64,000 bases of DNA from NCBI GenBank assembly GCA_052388515.1, contig JBQTHZ010000022.1:25102-89101 (forward strand), read 5' to 3'. Of this stretch, positions 11,102 through 62,623 are shown piece after piece (position 1 is the first letter of the stretch; each line of letters opens with the position of its first letter). Position numbers and translations under genes: made by a program. This stretch comes from Chloroflexota bacterium (lineage in GTDB: Bacteria; Chloroflexota; Limnocylindria; QHBO01). The notes under the pieces are model-generated. The model saw only the letters and a program-made list of their open reading frames with translations. It had not been told where the DNA came from and did no database searches.

Positions 11102-14100
11102 ATGCGATGCCCCTCGTGCGATTCGGATAACCCGGACGCCGCTCATTTCTGCGCAACATGCGGGGGTCGACTGCTCCTGACCTGCGCGCACTGCGGGGCG
11201 GAGCTGGCGCATGACGCCCGGTTCTGCTCGTTCTGCGGCGAACCGGTCGGTGGTGAGGGCCAGCGGCCGGCGGAGGCGGCGCCCGAGCCCGAGCGGCGCC
11301 GGGTCTCGGTGCTCTTCGTTGACCTTGCCAATTTCACTGCGCTTGCGGAGGCGATGGACCCGGAAGAGGTTCGGGCGGTGCAGGCACGCTACTTCGAGGT
11401 GGCGCGATCGATCGTTGCCGCCTACGGGGGCACGATCGAGAAGTTCATCGGCGATGCCGTCATGGCTGTCTGGGGTGCGCCATCCGCCCACGAGGACGAT
11501 GCAGAGCGGGCGGTCCGCGCCTCCCTTGCCATGGTCTACGCGGTCGACCGCATGGGCGGAGCCGCGTCCGGCCGAGCACTCCACGCCCGTGCTGCCGTCG
11601 CGACGGGGGAGGCGGCGGTGACGATCGGCGCCCGGGGCCAGGGCATGGTCGCCGGGGACCTCGTGAACGTGGCCGCACGTCTCCAGAGCCGCGCGCCGGT
11701 CGGCGGCGTGCTCGTCGATCGGACGACCCGCGAGCGCGCGTCGACTGCAACATCGTTCCGGCGCGTCGGGGCGCTGGCTCTCAAGGGAAGGACGGGCCGG
11801 CTCGAGGCGTACCGCGCGACGGGCGCCGGCGACGGCTCCGACGGGCGACGGAGCGGCGTTCACCCGGGACGGTTGGTCGGTCGCGATCGAGAGCTGCGGG
11901 AGCTGACCGACCTGGTGAGCACGGTCATGCGCGACCGTCACAGTCGCCTGGTGTCCGTGACGGGCATCGCCGGGATCGGCAAGAGCCGGCTCGCGTGGGA
12001 GCTGGATCGCTGGGTGGACGAGCATCCCGACGGAATCGCGTGGCACGATGGGCGTGCTCTCGCGTACGGCGAGGGGATCGCCTTCTCCGCGGTGGCGCAG
12101 ATGGTCCGTCGTCGTGCCCGCATCGCCGATGGCGTGGCGCCGGAGGTGGCGCGCCGCCAGCTGGGAGCTGCTCTCGAGGAGCTCATCCGCGACGAGGCGG
12201 AGCGACGCTGGATGGAGCCACGTCTCGCGACACTCCTGTCGCGCGAGGACACGACTGCGTTCGACCGCGACGAGCTGTTCGCCGCGTGGCGACGGTTCTT
12301 CGAGGGAGTCTCCGAACGGACCCCGGTCATCCTCGTGTTCGAGGATCTGCAATGGGCGGATCCCAGCCTGGTCGACTTCATCGAGTACATGGCCACGTGG
12401 TCCAGGACCCGACCGATCTTCATCCTTACGCTGGCCAGACCCGAGCTCCTGGACCGCCGCCCGGCGTGGGGTTCCGGGGTCGGCAGCTTCACGGCGATCA
12501 GCCTGGAGCGCTTGCCCGACGATGCCATGCGAGAGCTCCTGGCAGAACGGGCACCTGACCTTCCGGCTGAGCTCCTGCAGCCGATCCTCGAGCACGCCGG
12601 CGGCGTGCCGCTCTACGCCGTCGAGGTCGCCCGGATGCTCGGCGATCGCCGTGACGCAGGGCAGGAGGAGGGGCCACCATCGGTGCGCGCGACGGCGCCA
12701 CCCATGCAGATCGAGGTGCCCGACTCACTCCACGGGCTGATCGCCGCCCGCATCGACTCGCTGCCCGCCGGCGAGCGGCGACTCCTGCTCGCGGCTGCCG
12801 TGCTCGGACACCGCTTCCGGCCGGACGCGCTCCTCACCGTCGCGGGCGGAGGTCCCGACCGAACTCGAGAGCGTCTCGACGGCCTCGTTCGGCGCGAGCT
12901 GCTGACCCTCGACGAAGAGCTCAGCTCACCCGGGCATGGCGAGGTCGGATTCGTACAGGACCTCGTGCGCGAAGTGGCATACCATACGCTCGCGCGCTCG
13001 GAGCGACGCACGCTCCACCTGGCGGCCGCCCACTACCTGGAGTCGCTCGACGAGGACGTCGCGGAGCAGCTCGCCGGGCACCTGGTCGAGGCTCATCGAC
13101 TCACGTCGCAGCCACGCGAGGCCGATCGGCTCGCCCGACGAGCGGTCGCTGCGCTCCGGCACGGCGCGCGGGGCGCCACCGCGCTCCACGTGCCAGAGCG
13201 CGCGCTCGGAATGCTCCAGGCGGCGCTCCGGCTCGGAGGAGCGGGGCAGCGTCCGACGCTCCTGGCCGAGGCTGCCGATGCCGCCCAGGCGGCTGGCCGT
13301 CTCGAGCTCGCCGAAGAGCACCTTCGCGAGCTCATTGCGCTCCAGTCGGGGGCGGGCGAGCAGCACGAGGCCGCTCGATCGCGGGCCAGGCTCGCGAGCG
13401 TCATGCTGTCCGCGCAACGCAACGAGCCGGCGCTGGCGGAGCTGGAAGCGGCGATGCGGGCGATCCGCAACTGGGAGGCCGACCCGGCCGGTGTCGCACT
13501 GGTGGCGGAGCTCGCCCGGGCGCGGACCGTCGTTGGCGACGACCGCGAGGCACTCGCCTGGGCCGACCGCGCGCTGGCGGCGGCGGAACACCTCGGGCTG
13601 GCCGGCATCGCAACCGACCTCCGCGTGACGCGTGGAACCGCGAGGGTCGCCCTGGGCGAGGAGGAGGAAGGGCTGACCGACCTGCGGGCGGCGATCGCGC
13701 AGGCCCAGGACGCGGGGTCGCTCCACACCGAGCTTCGGGCCCGGAACAACGAGGCATGGGCACTGCTGGCCGATGACCCACGTGCGGCGATGGAGACAGC
13801 CCGACTGGGCCTGGAGCTGGCCACGGCGATGGGCCTCGCCGACATCGCCGTGCCCCTGGCTGACATCGCGTGTACCGCGGCAATCGAGACCGGGGAGTGG
13901 GGCTGGGCGTTGGAGACCATCGATGAGCTCACGCAGCGCGGGATTCCCGACACATACGGGATCGTGCTGGCCGCCACCGCCTCCATCATCGGCACGCTCC
14001 GTGGGGCTGCCGACGCCATGGACGCGCTCGACGCGCTCGAACCGCTGCCGCCCGAGACCGACGGGCAGGTCGTCGCCGGCGTGCGGCAGGCGCGCGCGTG

Positions 14101-14665
14101 GGCCGCGTTCGTGGCGGGTGAGCCGGAACAGGCGCGCCGCCTGGCGCAGGAGGCCACCACCGGATACGTCGGGAACGACCCCGCATACCAGCGGGCGCTC
14201 GCGACGCGCGCCGCGTTGTGGGCGGGCGATCAACCATCGGCCGAGGCGAGCATGGCTGGCCTCAGCGCTCCGGGGCAGTGGGGGCGCGCGACCGAGGCAA
14301 CCGTCGAGACGATGGAAGCCGGGCTCGCCGCGATCGGCGCACAGCAGGATGCGCGCGCACGCTACCGCCGAGCCCGTTCGGGATGGGAGGAGCTCGGTCT
14401 GCCACTTCAGCTCGCACTCTGCATGCTTGACGAACACAGGCTCGCACCTGGATCCGCGAGCGGCGGCGAGCTCATCGCCCTGGTGACGTCACTCGGCGCG
14501 GACGGCCTGCTCCCCCTGGTCGGCGACGATGAGGTGGCACTCAGGAGCCGATCAGATCCTCCACGACCGGCGCGATCGCGTCCACCCAGAGGCGGTACTG
14601 CGCGCCGGACGGGTGCAGCCCGTCGTCCGCCACGAGCGTCGGGTCGTCCCGCGCCGCCTGGCTGA
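11102..14665 (+). CDS. Multidomain signalling protein: double zinc ribbon, class III adenylate/guanylate cyclase, AAA/STAND ATPase, TPR-like repeats
   Basis: N-terminus CPSCDS..CATCG..CAHCG..CSFCG. Cyclase core VSVLFVDLANFT...FIGDAVMAVWGAP. P-loop GIAGIGKS. Long Ala/Leu-rich TPR-like C-terminal half. The last ~40 aa are low-complexity R/P-rich and overlap the lipase gene, so the true stop may lie earlier or there is a frameshift. Confidence 0.75.
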   Translation: MRCPSCDSDNPDAAHFCATCGGRLLLTCAHCGAELAHDARFCSFCGEPVGGEGQRPAEAAPEPERRRVSVLFVDLANFTALAEAMDPEEVRAVQARYFEVARSIVAAYGGTIEKFIGDAVMAVWGAPSAHEDDAERAVRASLAMVYAVDRMGGAASGRALHARAAVATGEAAVTIGARGQGMVAGDLVNVAARLQSRAPVGGVLVDRTTRERASTATSFRRVGALALKGRTGRLEAYRATGAGDGSDGRRSGVHPGRLVGRDRELRELTDLVSTVMRDRHSRLVSVTGIAGIGKSRLAWELDRWVDEHPDGIAWHDGRALAYGEGIAFSAVAQMVRRRARIADGVAPEVARRQLGAALEELIRDEAERRWMEPRLATLLSREDTTAFDRDELFAAWRRFFEGVSERTPVILVFEDLQWADPSLVDFIEYMATWSRTRPIFILTLARPELLDRRPAWGSGVGSFTAISLERLPDDAMRELLAERAPDLPAELLQPILEHAGGVPLYAVEVARMLGDRRDAGQEEGPPSVRATAPPMQIEVPDSLHGLIAARIDSLPAGERRLLLAAAVLGHRFRPDALLTVAGGGPDRTRERLDGLVRRELLTLDEELSSPGHGEVGFVQDLVREVAYHTLARSERRTLHLAAAHYLESLDEDVAEQLAGHLVEAHRLTSQPREADRLARRAVAALRHGARGATALHVPERALGMLQAALRLGGAGQRPTLLAEAADAAQAAGRLELAEEHLRELIALQSGAGEQHEAARSRARLASVMLSAQRNEPALAELEAAMRAIRNWEADPAGVALVAELARARTVVGDDREALAWADRALAAAEHLGLAGIATDLRVTRGTARVALGEEEEGLTDLRAAIAQAQDAGSLHTELRARNNEAWALLADDPRAAMETARLGLELATAMGLADIAVPLADIACTAAIETGEWGWALETIDELTQRGIPDTYGIVLAATASIIGTLRGAADAMDALDALEPLPPETDGQVVAGVRQARAWAAFVAGEPEQARRLAQEATTGYVGNDPAYQRALATRAALWAGDQPSAEASMAGLSAPGQWGRATEATVETMEAGLAAIGAQQDARARYRRARSGWEELGLPLQLALCMLDEHRLAPGSASGGELIALVTSLGADGLLPLVGDDEVALRSRSDPPRPARSRPPRGGTARRTGAARRPPRASGRPAPPG

Positions 14666-15242
14666 TCTCGAAGATCTCGGGGATGAACCGAATGCCGCGA
14701 GCATCGCACGCCTCGCGCAGGATGGCGTTGGCACGCAGGATCGCGTCGCTCTGCTGGACCGGATCTCCAAACGCCTCGCCGCTGGGCGTGACGGTGTAGT
14801 CCGGCGTCGCGATGCACACGACCCGGTCCGGCGGCAGCCGCGTCAGCAGCTCCTCCAGGATGACCGCCACGTTGCCGGCGTACTGCGAGTCGGCGACGCC
14901 CTGCACGACGTCGTTCACGCCGATGAGGACACTCACGAGCTCGGGCCGGAGTGCGTCGAGCTGTGGAAGCTCGTCATTGATCAGGTCGAGTGTCGTGTAG
15001 CCGTTCACCGCAGGATTGCCCACGAGCTCGATCCCGGGCAGGCGCTCGACGAGTTGGTTCGGCCAGCGCTCGGCCTCCGCAACGGACGTCCCGATCGTGT
15101 ACGAGTCACCCAGGGCAACGAAGCGCACCGCAGATCCCTCCCCATCGTCCGATTCGGTCGCACATCCCGCCAGCAGGCTGAGGACCAGGAGCAGCCAGAT
15201 CCGCGCGACGCGCTGGCGCATCGCGGCCGCTACCCTGTCCAC
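14541..15242 (-). CDS. SGNH/GDSL hydrolase lipoprotein
   Basis: Lipobox LLAGC after a signal peptide. GDSYT block I, GVND block III and DGLHP block V. Confidence 0.8.
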   Translation of the reverse strand: MDRVAAAMRQRVARIWLLLVLSLLAGCATESDDGEGSAVRFVALGDSYTIGTSVAEAERWPNQLVERLPGIELVGNPAVNGYTTLDLINDELPQLDALRPELVSVLIGVNDVVQGVADSQYAGNVAVILEELLTRLPPDRVVCIATPDYTVTPSGEAFGDPVQQSDAILRANAILREACDARGIRFIPEIFEISQAARDDPTLVADDGLHPSGAQYRLWVDAIAPVVEDLIGS

Positions 15243-32694: not shown

Positions 32695-32818
32695 CTGAGG
32701 CCAGAGGGTACCGGGCGACCGACATTGCCGCCGTGCGGCGCTGGACCGCGTGCGGCACGCTATGGCCAACGAGCCCGGCGAACGCTTAGGGTTCGGGCAC
32801 GCACCGCAGGATGGACCG

Positions 32819-34123
32819 ATGACCGAGACGGGTCCCGAGCAATCCCGGACCAGGCTGCCGCTCTCGCAGCTCGTCACACTGTCGATCTACTGGTTCGGCA
32901 TCCAGACGATCTGGGGCGGCCTCAACATCACGATCATCCCCGGCCGGCTCGACGACCTGAGCCGCGACACCCAGGGAACCCTGCTCGCGATCATCATGCT
33001 GGCCGGTGCGATCGCGCCGATCATCATCCAACCCACCGTTGGCGTGATCAGCGATTACACGGTGACCCGCTGGGGCCGCCGGAAGCCGTACATCGTGGTC
33101 GGGACCCTGCTCGACGTCGTCTTCCTTGCGGGACTCGCCTTCAACAACGACTTCGTGGCGATGGTCGCCTTCTACTTCCTCCTCCAGGTTAGCTCCAACT
33201 TCGCGCAGGGACCGTTCCAGGGATACGTCCCGGATCTCGTCCCCGCGAAGCAGGTCGGCACGGCCAGCGGTTTGATGGGGCTGATGCTCACCCTGGGCAC
33301 GATCGCCGGCGTCGGGATTGCCACGCTCGGCGGCATCACCGACAACGTCGCGCTCGCGACCCTTGCCCTCGGGGTCGTCGAGGTGGCCACCATGGTGGTG
33401 CTGATCGCCACGGTCGACGAGGGCCGCGCAGGACCGAAACGGACGCGTCCGTGGCGCGAGGTCGCACTGTCAGCGTGGGGCCGCGACATCCTCCAGCAGC
33501 GCGACGTGCTCTGGCTGCTGCTCGTGCGGCTCCTCTTCCTCGGGGCCTACAACGCGACCCTGATCGCCATCGGCTACTTCCGGCGTTCGCACGGGTTGAG
33601 CGACGATGACGCGGACGCCACGGTCTTCCTGGCAACGGCCATCGTTGGGGTCTCGACCGCGGTCGCGGCCATTCCGGGCGGCCGGCTGTCCGATCGATTC
33701 GGTCGGCGACCCGTGATCTGGGCCGCGGCGCTGATCGCCGGGATGGGCCTGCTGGGCGTCGCGGTCGCACCGACTCCCGAGCTCGCCATCGCCTCCTGGG
33801 TCCCGTTCGGGATCGGGATGGGAACCTTCCTGTCGGCGGATTGGGCACTCATGGCCGACGTCATCCCCAAGCACACGGCCGGCAGGTACATGGGGATCCT
33901 GAACGCCGGCACCGCCATGGCCGGCCCGGTCTTCATCGTGGTCGCCGGGCCGGTCCAGGACCTGGTGGCTGCCGGCTTCGGCGATGCAGCCGGCCCGCGG
34001 GTCGCGATGGGGGTCGCCGCCGGGTTCATCGCGCTGTCGGCGTTGGCGCTCAGCCGCGTCGATCCGCGCCGCCGAGAGGACGAGGACGACATCGCGACGC
34101 GAGCGTCGACGGTGGCAGCATGA
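32819..34123 (+). CDS. MFS transporter
   Basis: 12 TM segments. Start at the MTETGPEQ ATG. Divergent from the upstream MFS gene. Confidence 0.7.
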   Translation: MTETGPEQSRTRLPLSQLVTLSIYWFGIQTIWGGLNITIIPGRLDDLSRDTQGTLLAIIMLAGAIAPIIIQPTVGVISDYTVTRWGRRKPYIVVGTLLDVVFLAGLAFNNDFVAMVAFYFLLQVSSNFAQGPFQGYVPDLVPAKQVGTASGLMGLMLTLGTIAGVGIATLGGITDNVALATLALGVVEVATMVVLIATVDEGRAGPKRTRPWREVALSAWGRDILQQRDVLWLLLVRLLFLGAYNATLIAIGYFRRSHGLSDDDADATVFLATAIVGVSTAVAAIPGGRLSDRFGRRPVIWAAALIAGMGLLGVAVAPTPELAIASWVPFGIGMGTFLSADWALMADVIPKHTAGRYMGILNAGTAMAGPVFIVVAGPVQDLVAAGFGDAAGPRVAMGVAAGFIALSALALSRVDPRRREDEDDIATRASTVAA

Positions 34124-34866
34124 GCACCGCGACGGACCGGGCGCGGCGCACGGGGCCGCGTGAGCTGAGCGTGGCCGTCACGCCGCGCTATCGGCTCATG
34201 TGGGGCCTGAACCGCGTGGTCATGGGCACGCTGTTCGACATGCGCGTCAGCGGGGTGGACCGCTGGCCGCGGCCGCCCTTCCAGATCGTGGCCAACCACC
34301 ACAACGGATTCGATCCGTTACTCGTGCTCTCGGTCGTGCCGGTCGAGCCGCGCATCACGTGGTTCGGGCCGAAGGAGGCCGACTTCAGCCGCGGTTTCAA
34401 GAACCGCGTGATGGCCTTCTTCGGCGGCGTCATCCCGTACAACCCGCAGAAGACGACGCTCACATCCGCCGTCCGGGCTGTTCGCCGAGTCTTCGCGGCC
34501 GATGGGGTGCTCGGCATCTTCGCGGAGGGACGCATCGGCTTCCGAGAGACCGACCTGCTGGACTTCGAGGACGGCGCGGCGGCCTTCGCCATCTCCGCCG
34601 GCGTCCCCGTGGTCCCGTGTGCGGTGGTCGGCAGCACGAACCTCTGGTTCCGCCGGCGGATCGAGATCCGCTTCGGACCGCCCATTCCGACCGACGCCGT
34701 CCGCGGCCACGGGGCTCGAGACGCGCTCGAGGCCCGCATCCGGGAGGGCGTCGCCGCGCTCCTGCCCGACCGCGAGCCGCGGCTGCCGCGACGCCGGCCG
34801 CTCGCGTTCCTGACCGATCTGCTCAACGGGGCCGACGACATCGCTCGCCGCGGCGGTGAGCGCTAG
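34120..34866 (+). CDS. 1-acyl-sn-glycerol-3-phosphate acyltransferase (PlsC family)
   Basis: HX4D motif ANHHNGFDP, FAEGRI and PVVPCAV blocks. ATG overlaps the TGA of the MFS gene (ATGA). Confidence 0.75.
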   Translation: MSTATDRARRTGPRELSVAVTPRYRLMWGLNRVVMGTLFDMRVSGVDRWPRPPFQIVANHHNGFDPLLVLSVVPVEPRITWFGPKEADFSRGFKNRVMAFFGGVIPYNPQKTTLTSAVRAVRRVFAADGVLGIFAEGRIGFRETDLLDFEDGAAAFAISAGVPVVPCAVVGSTNLWFRRRIEIRFGPPIPTDAVRGHGARDALEARIREGVAALLPDREPRLPRRRPLAFLTDLLNGADDIARRGGER

Positions 34867-34878
34867 CATCGGTCCGAC

Positions 34879-35151
34879 ATGCTCCCCCTGATCTGGACGT
34901 TGTTCGTCGTGCTCGCCGTCGCGGGATTCCTGATGATCGCCGCCTACTGGCTGGATGTGCAGGAGCGACCGGACCTGACCACGCGAGCGCGGATCGGCTG
35001 GTCGGCGGCGGTCCTGCTCTTTCCGATCTCGATCCCGGCCTATGCCTTTGCCGGTGGTCCGGGATGGCCGCCCTTCCTGCGGATCACGAGCCTCGTGCCG
35101 ATGCTGGCGGTCGCGCTCTTCGCCGGCTTCGTGTTCGGGGCGTTTAGCTAG
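34879..35151 (+). CDS. PLDc_N-like small membrane protein (cardiolipin-synthase N-terminal-type domain)
   Basis: 90 aa, two TM helices. Conserved W...RPDL...W..AVLLFP pattern. Confidence 0.55.
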   Translation: MLPLIWTLFVVLAVAGFLMIAAYWLDVQERPDLTTRARIGWSAAVLLFPISIPAYAFAGGPGWPPFLRITSLVPMLAVALFAGFVFGAFS

Positions 35152-35752
35152 GACGCTCGCGGCGGAAGGCCACGAATGACACCGCCGCGACGAGGCCGAT
35201 GACGCCGAGCAGCGCCAGGGCGGTCACCGGGATCTCAGCCTCCTGCGCTGCCGCCAGGCTGTCGTCGGGCGCCGTGATTGGCAGGGGCGCCTCCGCACCG
35301 ACCTCGAGCGCCACGTTGCCGGAGCACAGCCCGGTGGTGTGCATGGCGCCATCCCACGTGGTGAACACCAGCCAGCGCTCACCCGTCCCGAAGCTCATGC
35401 CGCACGACGCTCCGTCGCCGCCGGCAAGCACGTCGATTCCGGCCCCGACCTCGCCCTTGGCAACGCCGTCGACGTCGAAGGTGTAGATGGATTGGCCGAA
35501 CGGCATCGGCATCGGAACGGTCGCCGCGATGGCGCCACCTCGACGAGTGTCGACGCCCACCGGCGACTCGTTGACCACCGTACCGGCGAAGACGGCATCG
35601 GCGAACTCCGCGGCCTGCTCCGGCGTGGACATCGCGCAGCTGCATGCTGCCACCTGGGCCACGGGCAGGCTGGCCAGGCCGATTGCGAAGATGACCGCGA
35701 AGACGAGCCTCATCGTGCCGTTGGGACGCTCGGAACGCCGCATCGGTTGCAT
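35144..35752 (-). CDS. Secreted TIMP/NTR-like protein with C-terminal TM anchor
   Basis: Signal peptide ending VAQVAA, then CSCAMSTPEQAAEFADAVFAGTVV. Vertebrate TIMP-2 starts [22 protein letters not shown]. A C-terminal hydrophobic helix is followed by RRERPS. Confidence 0.55.
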   Translation of the reverse strand: MQPMRRSERPNGTMRLVFAVIFAIGLASLPVAQVAACSCAMSTPEQAAEFADAVFAGTVVNESPVGVDTRRGGAIAATVPMPMPFGQSIYTFDVDGVAKGEVGAGIDVLAGGDGASCGMSFGTGERWLVFTTWDGAMHTTGLCSGNVALEVGAEAPLPITAPDDSLAAAQEAEIPVTALALLGVIGLVAAVSFVAFRRERPS

Positions 35753-35769: not shown

Positions 35770-37209
35770 ATGACGAGCCAGACCGATACCACCGCGTCCA
35801 CAGATGAAGTGCATGCCGCCGTGGCCTATCTCCGCGAGCACGACGCAGCGCACCTCGCGCAGCTGGACGAGTTCCTGCACATCGAGAGCGTCTCCGCCGA
35901 TCCCGGACGCACGGACGAGGTCCGGCGCGCCGCGCGGTGGATCGCCGACGAGCTCACGCGGCTCGGCGTCGAGCGTGCCACGCTCCACGAGACCAGCGCG
36001 CACCCGATCGTCACCGCCGAGTGGATGAAGGCCGGCGATGACGCGCCGACCGTGCTCGTGTACTGCCACTACGACGTCCAGCCGACGGATCCCCTGGACG
36101 AGTGGATCCGTCCGCCGTTCGAGCCGCGGCACGAGAACGAGCGCGTCTACGCCCGCGGCGCCGGCGACGACAAGGGCCAGCTCTTCATGCATCTCAAGGC
36201 GGTCGAGGCCTGGATGGAAACCACCGGGCGCCTGCCGGTGAACCTGCGCTTCTTCTTCGAGGGAGACGAGGAGGTAGGCTCCGAACCCGTCGAGGCGTTC
36301 ATCGCCGAACACGCCGACCTGCTGACGGCCGACGTGTGCGTCGTATCGGACGGAGACACGTTCGACGACGACGGCACGCCCGCCATCGGCTACGGACTGC
36401 GCGGGATCGCCTACTGGGAGGTCCGCGTCCACGGACCACGCCAGGACGTCCACTCCGGCCAGTACGGCGGCGGCGTCGACAATCCGGCCAACGTGCTCGT
36501 CCGCATGCTGGCTTCCATGACCGATGCCGACGGCCGGGTCGCGCTGCCCGGCTTCTACGACCGAGTACGCGATCTGACCGACGAGGAGCACGCGGCCTAC
36601 GCCGTCCTTCCCTTCGACGAGCGCGCATGGGCCGATGAGTCCGGCGTTCCGGCACCGATGGACGGCGAGCGCGGGCACTCGCTGCTCGAGCGGCTCTCCG
36701 CCCGGCCCACCTTCGACGTCAACGGCATCTGGGGCGGCTACCAGGGCGAAGGCGCCAAGACGATCATCCCGGCCTGGGCAGCCGCGAAGATCTCGACGCG
36801 GCTCGTCCCGGATCAGGACCACCGCGAGATCGAGGCGCTGATGGTGGAGCATCTCACCTCGATCGCGCCGCCGTCGGTGCGCGTGGAGGTCAGGATCATC
36901 CACGGTGGAGCGCCGGCCATCACGCCGCTCGACCATCCGGGCATCGGGCCCGCGGCCCGCGCGCTCGAGGCCGGATTCGGCAAGGCACCACTCTTCCAGC
37001 GCTCCGGTGGCTCCGTCCCGGTCGTCGCGGCGCTCGATGCGCATCTCGGGTTGAAGACCCTGATGGTCGGATTCGCCAATCCCACCGGGAACTTCCATGC
37101 GCCGAACGAGTGGATGAGCCTGCGCAACCTTCGCGACGGCATGGCCTCGCTCGTTCACCTGTGGGGCGAGATCGGGCAGATGAAGGCGACCGACCTGCGC
37201 ACGGAGTAG
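35770..37209 (+). CDS. M20 family dipeptidase
   Basis: M20 metal-binding blocks HYDVQP, GAGDDKGQ and EGDEEVGS. Confidence 0.8.
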   Translation: MTSQTDTTASTDEVHAAVAYLREHDAAHLAQLDEFLHIESVSADPGRTDEVRRAARWIADELTRLGVERATLHETSAHPIVTAEWMKAGDDAPTVLVYCHYDVQPTDPLDEWIRPPFEPRHENERVYARGAGDDKGQLFMHLKAVEAWMETTGRLPVNLRFFFEGDEEVGSEPVEAFIAEHADLLTADVCVVSDGDTFDDDGTPAIGYGLRGIAYWEVRVHGPRQDVHSGQYGGGVDNPANVLVRMLASMTDADGRVALPGFYDRVRDLTDEEHAAYAVLPFDERAWADESGVPAPMDGERGHSLLERLSARPTFDVNGIWGGYQGEGAKTIIPAWAAAKISTRLVPDQDHREIEALMVEHLTSIAPPSVRVEVRIIHGGAPAITPLDHPGIGPAARALEAGFGKAPLFQRSGGSVPVVAALDAHLGLKTLMVGFANPTGNFHAPNEWMSLRNLRDGMASLVHLWGEIGQMKATDLRTE

Positions 37210-37323: not shown

Positions 37324-37977
37324 GTGCCCGCCCAACCGCCTGCCAAGGACCCCGATGATCCCTGGCTGCCGCTGGGTGCCGCCTCGAGGCTGGTGGGCGT
37401 GGGTCCCGATACGCTGCGTCGATGGGCCGATACCGGCAAGGTCCAGAGCTACCAGACGCCGGGCGGGCATCGGCGATTTCTGCGCTCCAGCCTGGAAGCC
37501 ATGATCAACGCCCCGCGGCGGCATCGATACGGCATGGAGCGGCTGCCGGACTCCACGCGGACGATGGCGGGCGAGCTTCATCGGCGCATGCAGCGCACCG
37601 GATACGCCACGCAGCCCTGGCAGGCGCGCCTGTCGGCCGAGCAGCGCGACGAGTTCCGCCGATGGGGCCAGCGGACGTTCCAGCTGGTCATCGAGTACGT
37701 CGCCGCATCGAAGAAGGCCGAGCGCCAGATCCTGCTCGACGAGGCCGAGAAGATGGGTGGCCTGTACGGTGGCGAGGCATCGCGGGCCGGCCTGACGCTG
37801 GCCGAGACGGTGGAGGCGTTCCTCTTCTTCCGCTCCCCGGTGCTCGACGCGATCACCGGCCACCTGCGGCGCCGGTCCGCCGACGTCACCGACCTCACCG
37901 CCGCCTTCCACGAGGCGAACGCCGCCATCGACCAGGTGCTCGTGGCCCTGGTGAGCTCCCACCGGGAAGGTCGCTGA
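37324..37977 (+). CDS. MerR/excisionase-type HTH DNA-binding protein with unknown C-terminal domain
   Basis: N-terminus LPLGAASRLVGVGPDTLRRWADTGKV is a MerR-like HTH. GTG start. Confidence 0.55.
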   Translation: MPAQPPAKDPDDPWLPLGAASRLVGVGPDTLRRWADTGKVQSYQTPGGHRRFLRSSLEAMINAPRRHRYGMERLPDSTRTMAGELHRRMQRTGYATQPWQARLSAEQRDEFRRWGQRTFQLVIEYVAASKKAERQILLDEAEKMGGLYGGEASRAGLTLAETVEAFLFFRSPVLDAITGHLRRRSADVTDLTAAFHEANAAIDQVLVALVSSHREGR

Positions 37978-37978
37978 T

Positions 37979-39103
37979 CTACTCGACGACGTAGAGCTCG
38001 GTGGAGGTCGTGTTCAGACGCTCGCCGCCGACATCGGTGCAGACGACGATGTCCTCGATCCGGGCTCCCCAACGCCCCTGGAGATAGATCCCCGGCTCCA
38101 CGCTGAAGGCGTGGCCCTCGCGGAGCAGCTCCGGATTCGAGGCGACGATGTACGGATCCTCGTGGGTCGCCATGCCGATGCCGTGGCCGGTCCGATGGAT
38201 GAACGCATCGCCGTAGCCGGCCTCGTCGATGATCCGGCGCGCGGTCGCGTCGACTTCGCTGCACGCCACTCCTGGTTGAACCGCCTCGCAGGCGGCGGCC
38301 TGGGCCTCGCGAAGGACCGCGTGCAGCGCCGCGAACTCCGGCGCCGGCTCGCCGACGAACGCGGTGCGGCTCGTGTCGCTGCTATAGCCGGCGCGCGTTC
38401 CGCCGATGTCGAGAACGACGGCGTCGCCCACCTCGATCACCCGATCGCCGGCCACGTGATGCGGGCTGGCAGCGTTCGGGCCGGACGCAACGATCGCGAA
38501 GCCTGCCTCGTCGTGTCCTGCTCCCAGCAGCAGCTCACGGATGTGCCTGCTGACCTCCGACTCCGTCTGCCCTGACAGGCGCTCTCCGACGATCGCGCTC
38601 ATCGCCTCGTCGGCTCCGACCGCCGCAGCGCGCAGGCGCTCGATCTCCTCCGAGCTCTTGATGCGCCGCAAAGCGCTCATGGTCGGTCCGGCCTCGACCA
38701 GCTCCGTCGGATCGAGCGCCGCGCGCAGGCGGAGGGCGAAGCGTGCCCACATCTGGTCCTGCACAGCCACCCGGCGGGCACCCGCCACGATCGCCTGGAC
38801 CAGTCGGACCGGGTCATCGGTCTCGTCCCACGCCACGAGCGTGATCTCATCCGCGAGCTCACCCAGCTCGTGTCGGGCGAGCGGCTCCTCGAGACGCGGC
38901 AACACCAGCGCCACCTCACCATCGGCTGGAACGATCAGGCAGGTCAGCCGCTCGAGCGCCGGCGCCGCATACCCGAGGAGGTATGCGTAGTCGTGCGACG
39001 GTGTGACCAGGAGCGCGTCGACGCTGCGTTCGGACGCCGCACGGGCAGCTTGTGCGAGGCGTTCGCGGTGGACGGAGGGCGCGAATCCGGTGGCAGGGGT
39101 CAT
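37979..39103 (-). CDS. M24 family Xaa-Pro peptidase
   Basis: HRTGHGIGMATHE and SVEPGIY...GARIEDIV metal-ligand blocks. Confidence 0.8.
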   Translation of the reverse strand: MTPATGFAPSVHRERLAQAARAASERSVDALLVTPSHDYAYLLGYAAPALERLTCLIVPADGEVALVLPRLEEPLARHELGELADEITLVAWDETDDPVRLVQAIVAGARRVAVQDQMWARFALRLRAALDPTELVEAGPTMSALRRIKSSEEIERLRAAAVGADEAMSAIVGERLSGQTESEVSRHIRELLLGAGHDEAGFAIVASGPNAASPHHVAGDRVIEVGDAVVLDIGGTRAGYSSDTSRTAFVGEPAPEFAALHAVLREAQAAACEAVQPGVACSEVDATARRIIDEAGYGDAFIHRTGHGIGMATHEDPYIVASNPELLREGHAFSVEPGIYLQGRWGARIEDIVVCTDVGGERLNTTSTELYVVE

Positions 39104-39209
39104 GCTCGAAGCCTAACCGATGAGCCCATTGCCAGCTGCCAGCGAATCGCCCAGGCTGCCGTGGGACGTGCCACACTGTCATACGCCGTCATACGAGTCC
39201 GGGAGGCCG

Positions 39210-41756
39210 ATGCGCAAGGCTGAACTGCCGCACGTCGAACGCCGCGACCACCACCGCGCGCGCCTCAGCGCTGCCGGCCTGGCCGCCGTGCTCACGCTCG
39301 GCACGGCTTCGTACCCGGCCGACACGTCGGCGGCGGATCCGCGACAGGCAGCGATCGAGCAGGTCGCCGTCGAGCATGGCGTCGCGCCATCCGACCTGGA
39401 GGTCGTCAACGAGCGACAGGCGACCAGTGGCGGAGAGACACTCAGCGCGGTGAAGCTGTTCGACCGCCACAGCGGTGAGATCCACTCCGTGTACCGCGAT
39501 GTGCGCGGCGTGATCGGCGACGGCACGGTTCTGCAGGCGGTTACTGACAGGGGCGCGGTCGACCTGACGGTGCTCGAGCGCAAGGCCGATGAGCCGCTGC
39601 TCGCGGCGGTCGCCGAGCTGCCCACCGAGGGCACGTTGCGGGTTGCCATCTGGACCGACGTCGACACGGGCATCGCAGCGGAGGCGGTCCGCGCCGTCCA
39701 TCCGGAGGTCACATGGCTGGCGGGACGGCCCGTGACGGATGACCTCGCGCAGCTGCGGTCGCTCCGCGGCGAGCTGTGGGAGGCACGTCGCGTCGTGCTC
39801 ATGGCGGCGGCCGATCGCCTCCGAACGCGGGTCGAGGCCCAGGGGGGAACGGTCGCGTATGCGAGCACCTCGTCTCCACTCGTCTTCGCTGACATGCCGG
39901 CGACCGGCGTGGAGGCGCTCGCATCCCTCCCGGAGGTGACGAGCATGGGCCTCGAGGGGACCTGGGAGACCCAGATGTCGAGCGCCGGTCGTGCCGTCGG
40001 CGCGAACTGGACGAGCGGGAGCGGCGACCAGGGCAATGGCGTCCGAGTGGGGGTGGTGGAGTACCAGAACGTTCGCAATACCGGCGACATGGCAGGGCAG
40101 GTGGCACGCTCATACAGCACCACCGGCTCGCTGTCGTATGGCAGCGGTGGCGGCGATCATCCGACCTGGGTCGCCGGCGCCGTGGCGAGCAGGAGCGGCA
40201 CCTATGCCGGCGTGGCACCGGGTGCGGACATTGTCAGCGCGTCGACGGGTGGGTACCGACCCAGCCTCGCCACGGACCGAGCGATCATCGCCGCGGCGGA
40301 TTGGGCGATCTCGCCCTCGGGCGGCGACGCGGACATCCTGAACGCCAGCATCGGCCAGGACACCGCGACCGGAGCGGAGGAAGCACGCCGGTACTTCGAC
40401 TCGATCGCCTGGGAGGATGGCCGCCTCGTCGTGGCCGCATCAGGAAACTACGTCACCTTCGGCAACTGGGACGTCGTGTCGCCCGGGACCGGATACAACG
40501 TGCTCACCGTGGGCGGCATCAATGATCGCGGCACTGCCGGCACCTCCGATGACCGGCTCTGGTACGTGCCGGGCTCGAATGGTGCGGCCTACCGTGACCG
40601 GACCGATGCCTCCTGGAACGTGCACGGCGACTACAACAAGCCGAACGTGTCGGCACCATCGGTCAGCGTCAGGACGGCGAACGGCATCATCGGCGATGGC
40701 ACGAGCGTCGCCTCGCCGATCGTGGCCGGGGTTGCCGCCCAGCTGGTGGCCCGTGCGCCGGCACTCGCCGCCTGGCCAGAGGCGACGCGCGCGCTGGTCA
40801 TGGCCGGCGCCTTCCGCCGCAGCCCGATGCCGAACGGCGGAGTCGATACCGACCACGAGGGCGTCGGCACCGTGTCGGCGACCTGGTCGAACCGGGCGCT
40901 GGTCAATGGCAACGGCACGTACGGTGGGTACGTCTTCGGCGCAATGACACGTGGGCAGACGGTCGTTCGCGAAATCCCGGTGGTGGCCGGTCAGCGGGTC
41001 CGTGCCGCGCTCGCATGGAGCAGCCACACCTCCGGTTCGAACACCACCAAGGCCGATGCGCTGATGGCGGACCTCGACCTGCGCATCATCGCGCCGAATG
41101 GGGCCGTGACCGGGTCGTACTCGTGGGACAACCCGTACGAGGTCGCGGAGATCACCGCGGCGACGACCGGTACCCTGCGGATCGAGATCCGGCACGACCG
41201 CTTCGATGCCGCAGAAGAGCCGTACGGCCTCGCCTGGACGGTGCGCGGTCCATTCTTCGACGCCGATGACTCTCCGTTCCGCGCCGACATCCTGTGGGCT
41301 GCCCGCGAGGAGATCACGGCCGGCTGCGCCACGAATCGCTACTGCCCGGGCGCGGCGGTGACGCGCGAGCAGATGGCCTCGTTCCTCCGTCGCGCGGGCA
41401 ACGTGCCCTCGTCATCGATCGATCGGTTCACCGATGACGATGCGTCGATGCACGAGGCGGACATCAACGCGATCGCCGCCGTCGGGATCACCGGTGGCTG
41501 CGCCACGTCACGCTATTGCCCGCGCAGCCCGGTGACCCGCGAACAGATGGCGTCCTTCCTGGTGCGGGCGCTGGACCTGCCGGCCGGCAGCCGAGACTAC
41601 TTCACCGATGACGAGGGCAGCCAGCACGAGGCCGCCATCAATGCCCTTGCCGCGGCCGGAATCACCGGTGGCTGCGCCACCGGGCGCTACTGCCCGGGCG
41701 CCACGGTCACGCGCGGCCAGATGGCGGCTTTCCTCCATCGTGGTTTCGGTCCGTGA
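39210..41756 (+). CDS. Secreted S8 (subtilisin-like) serine peptidase with three C-terminal SLH domains
   Basis: GGAGG RBS and signal peptide. Subtilase His box HPTWVAG and Ser box GTSVASP. Three tandem ~50-aa repeats of F.D......H...I.A.A..GIT.GCAT.RYCP...VTR.QMA.FL fit the S-layer homology domain. Confidence 0.8.
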   Translation: MRKAELPHVERRDHHRARLSAAGLAAVLTLGTASYPADTSAADPRQAAIEQVAVEHGVAPSDLEVVNERQATSGGETLSAVKLFDRHSGEIHSVYRDVRGVIGDGTVLQAVTDRGAVDLTVLERKADEPLLAAVAELPTEGTLRVAIWTDVDTGIAAEAVRAVHPEVTWLAGRPVTDDLAQLRSLRGELWEARRVVLMAAADRLRTRVEAQGGTVAYASTSSPLVFADMPATGVEALASLPEVTSMGLEGTWETQMSSAGRAVGANWTSGSGDQGNGVRVGVVEYQNVRNTGDMAGQVARSYSTTGSLSYGSGGGDHPTWVAGAVASRSGTYAGVAPGADIVSASTGGYRPSLATDRAIIAAADWAISPSGGDADILNASIGQDTATGAEEARRYFDSIAWEDGRLVVAASGNYVTFGNWDVVSPGTGYNVLTVGGINDRGTAGTSDDRLWYVPGSNGAAYRDRTDASWNVHGDYNKPNVSAPSVSVRTANGIIGDGTSVASPIVAGVAAQLVARAPALAAWPEATRALVMAGAFRRSPMPNGGVDTDHEGVGTVSATWSNRALVNGNGTYGGYVFGAMTRGQTVVREIPVVAGQRVRAALAWSSHTSGSNTTKADALMADLDLRIIAPNGAVTGSYSWDNPYEVAEITAATTGTLRIEIRHDRFDAAEEPYGLAWTVRGPFFDADDSPFRADILWAAREEITAGCATNRYCPGAAVTREQMASFLRRAGNVPSSSIDRFTDDDASMHEADINAIAAVGITGGCATSRYCPRSPVTREQMASFLVRALDLPAGSRDYFTDDEGSQHEAAINALAAAGITGGCATGRYCPGATVTRGQMAAFLHRGFGP
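41277..41753 (+). repeat. Three tandem SLH-domain coding repeats (about 150-174 nt each)
   Basis: Repeat units start near 41277, 41427 and 41601. Confidence 0.7.
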
Positions 41757-60146: not shown

Positions 60147-61781
60147 TCACGCCTTCGATCGGGAGAGCGCGCCGCGATACAGGTCCAGGAGCCGCGTGCT
60201 CAGGCCGGGCCCGGAGCTGACGAGATCACGGAATGCATCGGCCTCGAGCGCGAGGAGCATGCCCGCCGCGGTGGCGGTCACGGTCGCGGTCCGCGGCGAC
60301 TGGCGAAGGAGCCCGATCTCTCCGAAGACGTCGCCCGGCCCGAGGTCGCGCAGGTGGACCGCCGTGCCGCCGGCGTCCGGCACCTGGGTCACGGCGACGC
60401 TGCCCTCGCCGATGACGTAGAACCGATCGGCGGCATCCCCCTGGCGGATGATCACGGTGCCCTGGTCCACCGGGACCTCCTCCAACTGGCGGGCGGCGGC
60501 CTCCAGGCGTGCGGCCGGCAACCCGGCGAAGATGGGATGCTCGAGCATCCGTGCGCGGGACGGATCCAGGGCTGCGGGCCGGGACTCTCGCGGCGCGAGG
60601 GCAAAGGCGGTCACGACGCCGACCACGGTGATCACTGCGGAGCCGATGAGGACCGGACCCACGCCGAACGCGCCGGCGATCAGCGGCATGACCAATGATC
60701 CAAGCGCGTAGAGAATCGCAGACGTCGTCTGCAGGACACCCATGGCGCGCCCTCGAAGCTCGTCGGGCACGATGCGCTGGATCAGCGTCGTGTTCACCAC
60801 GTCGAGCAGGAGGAGTCCACCGACCGCAATGCCAATGGCCAGCATGGCAGTCACGAGGTCGCCGGCCAGCGCGAGCCAGGCGAGACCGATCCCACCGAAC
60901 ATGCCGCCCAGGACCAGCGGCACCCCGAGACGACGAGCAAGCAGCGCCCCGGCCGCGATCCCGGTCACGACCCCTCCGACCCCGGTCGCTGCGTTGAGAA
61001 ATCCGGTACCGGCCTCGCCCGCGTTGAGCACGTCGACCGCGATGACGACCGTCAGCACTCCCACGCCTCCGCCCACGATGCTCGTCGTCGAGTCAAGGAT
61101 GAGTGGCCCCGCCAGCGGCCGGACGAGCTGGCGCCAACCGGCGGCAGGAGGTGCCGCGGCGTCCTCGCTGGTGGTCACCGGGCTCGCCGCGCGCGGCACG
61201 GGAAGCCGCCACAGGACGACCGCCACCACAGCGAACGAGATCGCGTTCAACAGGAACGCGAACTCGAGCCCACCACTCGCGAGCAGGATCCCGGCGAGAG
61301 CGGGGCCAACGATGAAGGCGACGTTGTCGAGGGTTGCCCACGCACTGTTTGCCGGGCCGAGGTCGCTCTCGTCCACGAGCATCGGCAGGAGCGCCGCGAT
61401 CGCCGGACCGAAGAACGTGGAGAAGCAGGCCGCAACGATGGCGAGGCCGACGATCGCGAACGTCGGCGCGTCCACGAGGACGGCCGCCACCAGGATCAGC
61501 ATCAGGACGCCGCGCGCCACATCCGTGACCAGCAGGACCATGCGGCGGTCGAAGCGGTCGGCCACGATTCCCGCAGGCACCGAGAGCAGGACGTACGGCA
61601 GGATGCGTGCAGCACCCACGATCCCCAGGAGGACCGCGGACTGGCTCTCGGCGTAAACGGCGACCAGGACGGCCACCAGGTAGAGCCAGTCACCGATCCC
61701 GGAGATGAACTCACCGGCCAACAGCCGTGCGAGCGCTCGATTTCGACGGAAGAGCTCGACGTAGACGCGGAGCAGGCTCAC
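60147..61781 (-). CDS. MFS transporter fused to a C-terminal cyclic-nucleotide-binding (cNMP) domain
   Basis: 12 TM MFS core with motif GIVADRFDRR, then a CAP-family cNMP domain (FGEIGLL...RTATV). GTG start at 61781 with a GAGGAG RBS, overlapping the S8 TGA. Confidence 0.75.
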   Translation of the reverse strand: MSLLRVYVELFRRNRALARLLAGEFISGIGDWLYLVAVLVAVYAESQSAVLLGIVGAARILPYVLLSVPAGIVADRFDRRMVLLVTDVARGVLMLILVAAVLVDAPTFAIVGLAIVAACFSTFFGPAIAALLPMLVDESDLGPANSAWATLDNVAFIVGPALAGILLASGGLEFAFLLNAISFAVVAVVLWRLPVPRAASPVTTSEDAAAPPAAGWRQLVRPLAGPLILDSTTSIVGGGVGVLTVVIAVDVLNAGEAGTGFLNAATGVGGVVTGIAAGALLARRLGVPLVLGGMFGGIGLAWLALAGDLVTAMLAIGIAVGGLLLLDVVNTTLIQRIVPDELRGRAMGVLQTTSAILYALGSLVMPLIAGAFGVGPVLIGSAVITVVGVVTAFALAPRESRPAALDPSRARMLEHPIFAGLPAARLEAAARQLEEVPVDQGTVIIRQGDAADRFYVIGEGSVAVTQVPDAGGTAVHLRDLGPGDVFGEIGLLRQSPRTATVTATAAGMLLALEADAFRDLVSSGPGLSTRLLDLYRGALSRSKA

Positions 61782-62623
61782 GCGCGCGCTTCTCCTCGTC
61801 CACGGGGGTGGCGGCGACCGGGATTGTCGGCGACGCTGGTCAGGATCGCCTTGACCTCGAACGGGCTGAGGCCCGGGTGCTTCGACAGGATGAGTGCCAC
61901 GAGTCCGGCCAGGTGCGGCGCCGCGAAGCTGTTGCCGGTGGCAATGGTGCTCCCGCCGTCCTTCCACGCGATCGGAACGTCGACGCCCCATGCCCCGAAC
62001 TCCACCGGCGGCGCGGGATTGTAGTAGATCCGCCAGGGGTCCGGCTCGGCGTGGGCAGCCACCGAGAAGACCGATGAAAAGAGCGAGGGATAGCTGGGCG
62101 CCGGGACGTTGTTCGCAGCGCTCACCAGCGCGGTACCGCGAAAGTACGCGCGATCGGCGAGGTCATGGAAGACCGGGTAGAGCGACTCGCTCTTCGACGA
62201 CAGGCTCAGGTTGCAGACCTGCAGTCCCTGCTCGATCGCCCATTCAAGACCGGCGGCGAAGGCGGTTCCCTTCCCGCGCAGGTCCGGGCCGAGGACACGA
62301 ATCGAGACGAGCTCGACGTCAGGCGCCAGGCCGACGATGATCGCGCCACACGCCGTGCCGTGACCGAACATGTCGACTGCCTGGTCCGGAACGACGACGG
62401 GCTCCTCTCCACCGATCTCGACCGTCACGTTCTCGACGACCCGACCGTGCAGGTCAGGGTGATCGTTCTCGAGCCCCGAGTCGATGATCCCGACGCGAAC
62501 GCCCTTGCCCGTGGCGCCACCCCAGGCCCATTCGCGGGTCAGGCCGACCAGGCGAAGGGGGCGGCGCAGTGCGTGCTTCGGATCCGCGAACGGCTCCGAC
62601 CAGGCCGGGAGCTGGTCGGTCAC
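61778..62623 (-). CDS. Intracellular S8 family subtilisin-like serine peptidase (no signal peptide)
   Basis: Catalytic triad blocks IIDSGL, HGTACG and GNSFAAP. 281 aa. ATG overlaps the GAF-protein TGA. Confidence 0.8.
   Translation of the reverse strand: MTDQLPAWSEPFADPKHALRRPLRLVGLTREWAWGGATGKGVRVGIIDSGLENDHPDLHGRVVENVTVEIGGEEPVVVPDQAVDMFGHGTACGAIIVGLAPDVELVSIRVLGPDLRGKGTAFAAGLEWAIEQGLQVCNLSLSSKSESLYPVFHDLADRAYFRGTALVSAANNVPAPSYPSLFSSVFSVAAHAEPDPWRIYYNPAPPVEFGAWGVDVPIAWKDGGSTIATGNSFAAPHLAGLVALILSKHPGLSPFEVKAILTSVADNPGRRHPRGRGEARA

Follow-up and report, generated by a model that had tools for sequence, protein, structure and literature searches.

Tissue inhibitors of metalloproteinases (TIMPs) have been described as an animal family and as an 'ancient eukaryotic protein family' (PMC4860685), and the paper that reported Tim of Listeria monocytogenes with its metzincin Mtz states that TIMP-like proteins had not been recorded from bacteria (PMC8235301). 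Tim itself is a lipoprotein (lipobox LTAC), and its gene always lies beside that of Mtz (PMC8235301). Membrane-anchored protein inhibitors of an organism's own secreted peptidases are also known from Tannerella forsythia as potempins; one of these, PotA, is an OB-fold beta-barrel whose inhibition of an MMP-like metzincin follows a bilobal mechanism and not N-terminal zinc chelation (PMC9890683). In the searchable literature we found no characterised member of the bacterial family described below, and Tim was the only bacterial TIMP-like protein found there. Here, we analyse a gene at 35144..35752 on the minus strand of a 64,000-nucleotide stretch (the window) of contig JBQTHZ010000022.1, from a Chloroflexota bacterium of the class Limnocylindria. 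It encodes a type I membrane protein with an ectodomain that is, in its entirety, a homologue of the inhibitory N-terminal domain (N-TIMP) of TIMPs. What is new is a bacterial single N-TIMP domain with two predicted disulfides and a membrane anchor, in a family that databases recognise in part. The TIMP-like reading is almost certainly correct at the level of homology and fold; that the protein works, by analogy with TIMPs, as a membrane-tethered inhibitor of an extracytoplasmic zinc peptidase is a proposal to which we give a probability of about 0.5.

The gene and the parts of its product, all on the minus strand, are as follows.

35144..35752, minus: complete gene for a membrane-anchored N-TIMP-like pre-protein, 202 codons plus stop (open reading frame list and sequence)
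35645..35752, minus: predicted signal peptide, residues 1-36 (hydropathy and family logo)
35636..35644, minus: predicted mature N-terminus Cys37-Ser38-Cys39, equivalent to TIMP Cys1-Ser/Thr2-Cys3 of the zinc-chelating wedge (conservation and hidden Markov model alignments)
35303..35644, minus: predicted OB-fold (NTR/N-TIMP-like) ectodomain, residues 37-150 (AlphaFold model, Foldseek)
35495..35560, minus: variable loop, residues 65-86, where TIMPs have their A-B hairpin (low model confidence; aligns with the TIMP-2 A-B region)
35399..35410, minus: Ala115-Ser116-Cys117-Gly118, the counterpart of TIMP-2 Ala70-Val71-Cys72-Gly73 (C-D connector in the reactive ridge) (aligned with TIMP-2 'SSAVCG')
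35315..35329, minus: Leu142-Cys143-Ser144-Gly145-Asn146, equivalent to TIMP-2 Leu100-Cys101 in the E-F loop (aligned with TIMP-2 'ITLCD' and TIMP-3 'TGLCN')
35228..35302, minus: stalk rich in Pro, Ala and acidic residues, residues 151-175 (length and sequence variable in the family, lower model confidence)
35165..35227, minus: C-terminal transmembrane helix, residues 176-196, VTALALLGVIGLVAAVSFVAF (Kyte-Doolittle 19-residue mean up to 2.6; helix 176-195 in the model)
35147..35164, minus: short basic cytoplasmic tail RRERPS, following the membrane helix

This open reading frame is a real, conserved gene. Its GC content by codon position (GC3 0.86, GC2 0.54) is like that of real genes in this window of 69% GC, and it is the only copy of its family there; the overlapping reading frames on the opposite strand are by-products of high GC. 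The start codon is ambiguous between M1, M4 and M14, with a GGAG 12 nt upstream of M1 and the equivalent of M14 serving as the start in many homologues. The choice touches only the n-region of the signal peptide, so the mature protein is unchanged. Hydropathy gives two hydrophobic segments in the 202-residue protein, at residues ~14-36 (signal peptide) and ~176-196 (membrane helix).

A word-indexed sequence collection yielded 242 homologues at E<=1e-3, and those with a named source are nearly all from metagenome-assembled genomes (MAGs) of Candidatus Limnocylindria (Chloroflexota), all annotated 'hypothetical'; repeating the word-index search with a broad profile brought up no proteins beyond these Limnocylindria ones. 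When 1.84 billion cluster representatives were searched exhaustively with a profile, 5,802 proteins scored E<=1e-3, of which 775 reached E<=1e-10, the resulting family size of ~5,800 being a count of clusters at 50% identity. Members from this search are mostly 170-230 residues long and share a uniform architecture, in which a signal peptide and A-C-S-C lead into a domain of ~110 residues and a Pro/Ala-rich stalk, itself variable, connects this to a membrane helix with a basic tail; the domain carries the motifs ADxVFxGTV, (Y/W)TFxVxxVxKG, (G)ASCGxxF, RW/RY and TGLCSGN. For the taxonomic range we scanned a set with one genome for each GTDB species, using a degenerate DNA pattern made by hand, the sensitivity of which is limited: it matched 2/8 known loci, and 38/68 of its matches in the collection are unconfirmed as members. 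The scan returned 30 verified members, in Actinomycetota (Nonomuraea, Herbidospora, Catellatospora, Spongiactinospora, Allorhizocola and Acidimicrobiales), Chloroflexota (Limnocylindria and other Chloroflexota/Chloroflexia MAGs) and Bacillota (Paenibacillus, Cohnella and one Bacillota MAG). Variants occur: one protein (P0177) has a MYXO-CTERM-like GGCASC tail in place of the plain membrane helix, which points to Myxococcota; another (P0141) has two tandem TIMP-like domains, each with its own preceding hydrophobic segment and A-C-x-C; and in a third (P0184) the membrane anchor is missing and a GerMN (Germane) domain (E=2.3e-10) is fused to the TIMP-like part. A tblastn search of plasmid records found two matches, unannotated or 'hypothetical'. 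Automatic naming in UniRef gives some members, those of Paenibacillus arenilitoris and Nonomuraea roseola among them, the name 'Tissue inhibitor of metalloproteinase', the NCBI/PGAP label for members is hypothetical, and NCBIfam has no model for the family.

The relationship to TIMPs is carried by family profiles. Searched against PDB sequences, a profile of 29 family sequences matched TIMP-2 at E=6.9e-8 and TIMP-3 at E=4.8e-7, and one of 109 sequences matched TIMP-2 at E=7.9e-9, with no significant matches besides TIMPs. Eleven of 29 relatives match the Pfam TIMP family PF00965, for which the curated cut-off is 23.1 bits; P0230 scores 40.4 and P0141 27, and the relatives' matches span positions 2-108 of the 183 in the model. 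The window protein is 36% identical to P0230 (E=1e-17), hence its TIMP homology is transitive, through a relative that itself passes the Pfam threshold, and not direct. Pfam NTR models matched none of 29 members, apart from a single NtA match at E=0.15. The TIMP alignments run from Cys1 to just past Cys101 and place C37, C39, C117 and C143 on TIMP-2 C1, C3, C72 and C101, the four cysteines whose two disulfides shape the inhibitory wedge.

At the N-terminus, the alignments begin exactly at Cys1 of TIMP-2 and TIMP-3. The signal peptide of the window protein consists of an n-region with R5, R6, R9 and R15, an h-region from L16 to L29 and the c-region PVAQVAA, and V34-A35-A36 is followed by CSCAMSTPEQAAEFADAVFAGTVV. 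A Tat signal was considered and rejected, given that the RR lies too far from the hydrophobic region. Across 263 family proteins examined, the residue preceding Cys1 is Ala in every one (263/263), position -3 is Val or Ala in 95% (Ala alone in 44%), position -2 is often bulky or charged (L/F/Y/H/M in ~36%), and positions -4 and -5 are mostly polar (Q, R, E or P). This logo of A/V-x-A followed by C-S-C reads as a signal peptidase I A-x-A site with a polar c-region, which is a better fit than a lipobox, and cleavage would leave Cys37 first. Cys37 and Cys39 are invariant among the 109 aligned sequences and Ser38 is present in 88%.

The remaining two cysteines lie in ASC117G and LC143SGN. All four are invariant among the 109 aligned homologues, in which the ASCG block is conserved at 83% (A), 68% (S), 100% (C) and 98% (G), and the LCSGN block at 100% for its Cys and 80-85% for L, G and N. 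The most conserved positions are C37, S38, C39, F55, G57, F92, V94, K99-G100, A115-S116-C117-G118, F121, R126-W127 and T140-x-L142-C143-S144-G145-N146. Exactly four cysteines are found in the mature part of 125/139 full-length representatives, with TIMP-like spacings of ~65-75 and 90-100 residues, and from the TIMP register Cys117 is the predicted disulfide partner of Cys37 and Cys143 that of Cys39. Three segments build the reactive ridge of TIMPs: the one at the N-terminus, the connector that leads up to the third Cys and the loop that precedes the fourth. The coincidence of the three conserved blocks with these segments is the main argument for a TIMP-like mode of working, and part of it could reflect disulfide structure alone. 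Residues 69-81 of the variable loop form an insertion specific to the Limnocylindria subfamily, rich in Pro, Ala and Met and beside the predicted reactive ridge; the columns for residues 69-78 and 81 are occupied in 14-38/109 members and those for residues 79-80 in ~70. This insertion could be a specificity loop.

Structure prediction agrees with the profiles. A full-length AlphaFold model, with a predicted local distance difference test (pLDDT) score of 75, had TIMP-2 as its top match (E=4e-5); TIMP-3 and TIMP-1 ranked next, ahead of NTR modules. Modelled separately from the 109 sequences, residues 37-160 reached pLDDT 86.6 and a predicted template modelling score (pTM) of 0.79, with one helix and five strands, residues ~65-86 being the only poorly modelled part. 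The 14 best PDB matches of this model in Foldseek are all TIMP-1/2/3, with probability 1.00 and template modelling (TM) scores of 0.60-0.65 (TMq/TMt 0.64/0.65 against N-TIMP-3 in its complex with TACE), and these are followed by the PCOLCE NTR module, agrin NtA, C345C and meteorin. No bacterial structure is among the matches listed for this model, and a Foldseek search of viral structures turned up nothing better than generic OB folds, all above E=0.1. The modelled structure of the window protein is thus an OB/NTR fold, a five-stranded barrel.

The C-terminal anchor is a family trait, given that a C-terminal hydrophobic stretch is present in 132/139 full-length representatives, and 115/132 of those with the helix have 2-6 Arg/Lys within the 8 residues after it. 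By the positive-inside rule the basic tail implies an N-out, C-in topology. A sortase or other sorting motif was looked for in the tail and rejected, the linker having no conserved motif.

The gene had been picked out in an earlier note, made from the letters of the window alone, and the 202-residue reading frame on the minus strand reads exactly as described there. Its signal peptide with a VAA cleavage site and CSC at the mature N-terminus is borne out by the family logo, which also answers its concern that cleavage might be predicted elsewhere. The parallel with TIMP-2 that it drew there agrees with profile alignments that start from TIMP Cys1, and the further cysteines that it proposed as NTR-type disulfide partners (ASCG and LCSGN) fall on TIMP-2 Cys72 and Cys101. 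The profile search that it suggested reached TIMP-2 and TIMP-3 (E=6.9e-8 to 7.9e-9 for TIMP-2), where a lack of similarity would have spoken against it, and in the structure predictions that it also suggested both models find TIMPs first and other NTR modules next. The membrane tether is likewise upheld by its conservation.

We propose the following mechanism. After Sec export, signal peptidase I would cleave behind V-A-A and expose Cys37 as a free N-terminus. Disulfides C37-C117 and C39-C143 would then link the N-terminal segment with the loops that hold ASCG and LCSGN and make a rigid wedge, whose Cys1 alpha-amino and carbonyl groups could chelate the catalytic zinc of a metallopeptidase, as in TIMPs, with Ser2 entering the S1' pocket. 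The Pro/Ala-rich stalk and the membrane helix would hold this wedge just outside the cytoplasmic membrane, where it could regulate or ward off a zinc peptidase that acts at the wall or surface of the cell.

Neighbouring genes and two further genes of the window are listed below.

14541..15242, minus: GDSL lipase, a lipoprotein candidate with a canonical LLAGC directly after its hydrophobic segment
30520..31422, minus: Lgt (prolipoprotein diacylglyceryl transferase), 4 kb from the TIMP-like gene
32750..34123, plus: MFS transporter
within 33841..34866, plus: acyltransferase, true start unclear
34879..35151, plus: small membrane protein of 90 residues, convergent with the TIMP-like gene and overlapping its 3' end by 8 bp
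35770..37209, plus: M20 peptidase, divergent neighbour
37324..37977, plus: MerR-type regulator
37979..39103, minus: M24 peptidase
39120..41756, plus: protease with a Peptidase_S8 domain and a C-terminal SLH domain, 878 residues

The earlier note had read the peptidase-rich surroundings as a clue to function. The M20, M24 and S8-SLH genes are present as it named them; the functional link does not hold. M20 and M24 peptidases are co-catalytic exopeptidases, not metzincins, and here are of cytoplasmic type, without a signal peptide; the Peptidase_S8 neighbour is a serine protease; and none of the three is a plausible TIMP-type target. The synteny of the window recurs in Limnocylindria and other Chloroflexota and is confined to that phylum, and we therefore rejected the peptidase-rich context as a functional clue. 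Elsewhere, the Paenibacillus member adjoins an MMPL transporter gene.

Some observations on the surrounding genes stand on their own. Of all the neighbours, the 90-residue membrane protein recurs in the largest number of Chloroflexota groups (5), and it does not occur beside the gene in other phyla; it belongs to no Pfam family and has a sub-threshold match to cytochrome bd subunit II (E=0.02). The S8-SLH protein is, by its SLH domain, a predicted wall-attached subtilase, and its gene is kept at the same relative position in a Limnocylindria relative (L001). Farther away, 11102-14665 (plus) encodes a 1,187-residue signalling protein, unrelated to the TIMP-like finding, in which a double zinc ribbon is joined by a cyclase domain (adenylate/guanylate type) and an AAA_16 (STAND-type) ATPase domain; at 60147-61991 (minus), an MFS transporter carries a cyclic-nucleotide-binding domain fused at its C-terminus, which is unusual and may be connected with that cyclase.

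Several results weigh against the inhibitor proposal. On its own, the window protein has no match in Pfam (even at E<=10) or NCBIfam, and its one match among PDB sequences is a designed helical repeat aligned to the signal peptide; the profile of its own subfamily reaches TIMP-2 only at E=0.37, in an alignment that already starts from Cys1. The third N-TIMP disulfide (Cys13-Cys124/126) is absent, TIMP-2 Cys13 being aligned to a non-Cys position, as is the C-terminal TIMP subdomain with its three further disulfides, there being only stalk, helix and basic tail past residue ~150. Most NTR modules are not protease inhibitors. The VAAC of the window protein also matches the lipobox expression [LVI][ASTVI][GAS]C, and the genome encodes Lgt. 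No coding-like reading frame of the 64-kb window contains HEXXH, and Pfam scans of 26 window reading frames found no extracytoplasmic metallopeptidase. Clustering of neighbouring reading frames at ~35 loci from three phyla showed no family common across phyla besides the TIMP-like gene, and no HEXXH metalloprotease is adjacent to it at any of these loci, the one nearby HEXXH protein being an FtsH-like M41 in one Bacillota MAG. With neither a shared neighbour across phyla nor an adjacent HEXXH peptidase, the target is not readable from gene order.

The main rival to an inhibitor is a protein with the same NTR/OB fold that serves as a membrane-tethered binding or scaffold module, for example for a cell-wall polymer or an envelope protein, with the CxC and its partner cysteines purely structural. 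Netrins, sFRPs, C345C and agrin NtA are mostly binding modules (agrin NtA binds laminin), and NTR modules are among the structural matches; no neighbourhood holds a conserved protease partner, one member is fused to GerMN, and in some genomes the gene sits among housekeeping genes, as in the dnaN-recF-gyrB region of Catelliglobosispora or between a phosphoglycerate mutase gene and secG on a metagenomic contig (L008). However, to our knowledge only TIMPs among NTR proteins put CxC directly at the mature N-terminus, and the family keeps exactly this feature with an invariant Ala at -1. Its sequence profiles match TIMPs and no other NTR families, and the conservation of Ser2 at 88% is not explained by disulfide structure alone. 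We regard a non-inhibitory binding module as less likely, though the most serious competitor, and the two readings that follow as minor.

The lipobox match raises the question of whether Cys37 is instead diacylglyceryl-modified by Lgt and exposed by signal peptidase II, which would leave its thiol and, if N-acylated, its amino group not free. About half of the family members can be read in this way, the Lgt gene is also near the TIMP-like gene in relatives, and the Listeria TIMP-like protein is itself a lipoprotein (PMC8235301). Nevertheless, the family pattern at -3/-2/-4/-5 is atypical of a lipobox and ideal for A-x-A cleavage, a lipidated Cys37 would leave three conserved cysteines unpaired, contrary to the TIMP register, and the C-terminal membrane anchor would make a lipid anchor redundant; the GDSL lipase of the window illustrates the contrast with a canonical lipoprotein. 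We therefore consider lipidation improbable. A metal-binding or thiol-redox protein, in which the N-terminal CxC with C117 and C143 would bind Cu/Zn or act as a redox pair at the membrane surface, seems quite improbable too: CxC motifs can bind metals, and on one metagenomic contig (L007, 8653-10208, plus) a member is directly followed by two cupredoxin-domain genes, but this neighbourhood was seen once and is not conserved, there is no similarity to known metallochaperone or thioredoxin families, and the four cysteines align one-to-one with disulfide-forming cysteines of every solved TIMP.

Returning to the inhibitor proposal, a large bacterial family has the complete TIMP reactive N-terminus in a new architecture of two predicted disulfides and a membrane anchor. 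If the mechanism holds, these proteins would make up a class of metalloprotease regulators new to bacteria, it would become testable where the TIMP/NTR module arose, and engineering would gain compact N-TIMP scaffolds with two disulfides; otherwise, the family would be a TIMP wedge reused for another purpose. A wider and more tentative hypothesis, which we put somewhat below even odds, is that bacterial single-domain membrane-anchored N-TIMPs inhibit bacterial zinc peptidases by Cys1 chelation and that the metazoan TIMP/NTR module has its prokaryotic root in this family, so that TIMPs would not be an animal invention. The family would then possibly be a large and old one with members in Chloroflexota, Actinomycetota, Bacillota and Myxococcota, numbering at least 5,800 clusters at 50% identity, and its members would be the first prokaryotic MEROPS I35 inhibitors, with cell-wall or surface metallopeptidases as possible targets.

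Among known systems, Listeria Tim (LMRG_00714) is alike in being bacterial, membrane-associated and predicted to have a TIMP-like fold (PMC8235301), but its similarity to TIMPs is in structure only, whereas the window protein has TIMP homology at the sequence level, a mature N-terminal CxC, a C-terminal anchor and no protease partner gene. The potempins differ in being outer-membrane lipoproteins that are co-transcribed with their target peptidases and unrelated in sequence to the TIMP-like protein. The pairing of inhibitor and peptidase genes seen in both systems (Listeria mtz-tim, potempin/KLIKK) is not seen here, no HEXXH peptidase adjoining the gene in the ~35 loci. Other NTR modules (PCOLCE, agrin NtA, complement C345C, meteorin, netrins and sFRPs) share the OB-type fold as lower-ranking structural matches, yet they are mostly internal or C-terminal domains without a free Cys1 N-terminus, have another Cys pattern and give no significant sequence match. 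From the N-domains of vertebrate TIMP-1 to TIMP-4 (PF00965, MEROPS I35) the window protein differs in being bacterial (Chloroflexota), in having two predicted domain disulfides, not three, in carrying a Pro-rich stalk and membrane helix instead of the C-terminal subdomain, and in lying itself below the Pfam threshold. It is like them in having Cys-Ser/Thr-Cys directly after the signal peptide, an OB/NTR fold in its model, cysteines at the Cys1, Cys3, Cys70/72 and Cys99/101 positions, the helix-1 motif P-x-Q-A-x-x-x-A-D-x-V and C-G after the third Cys.

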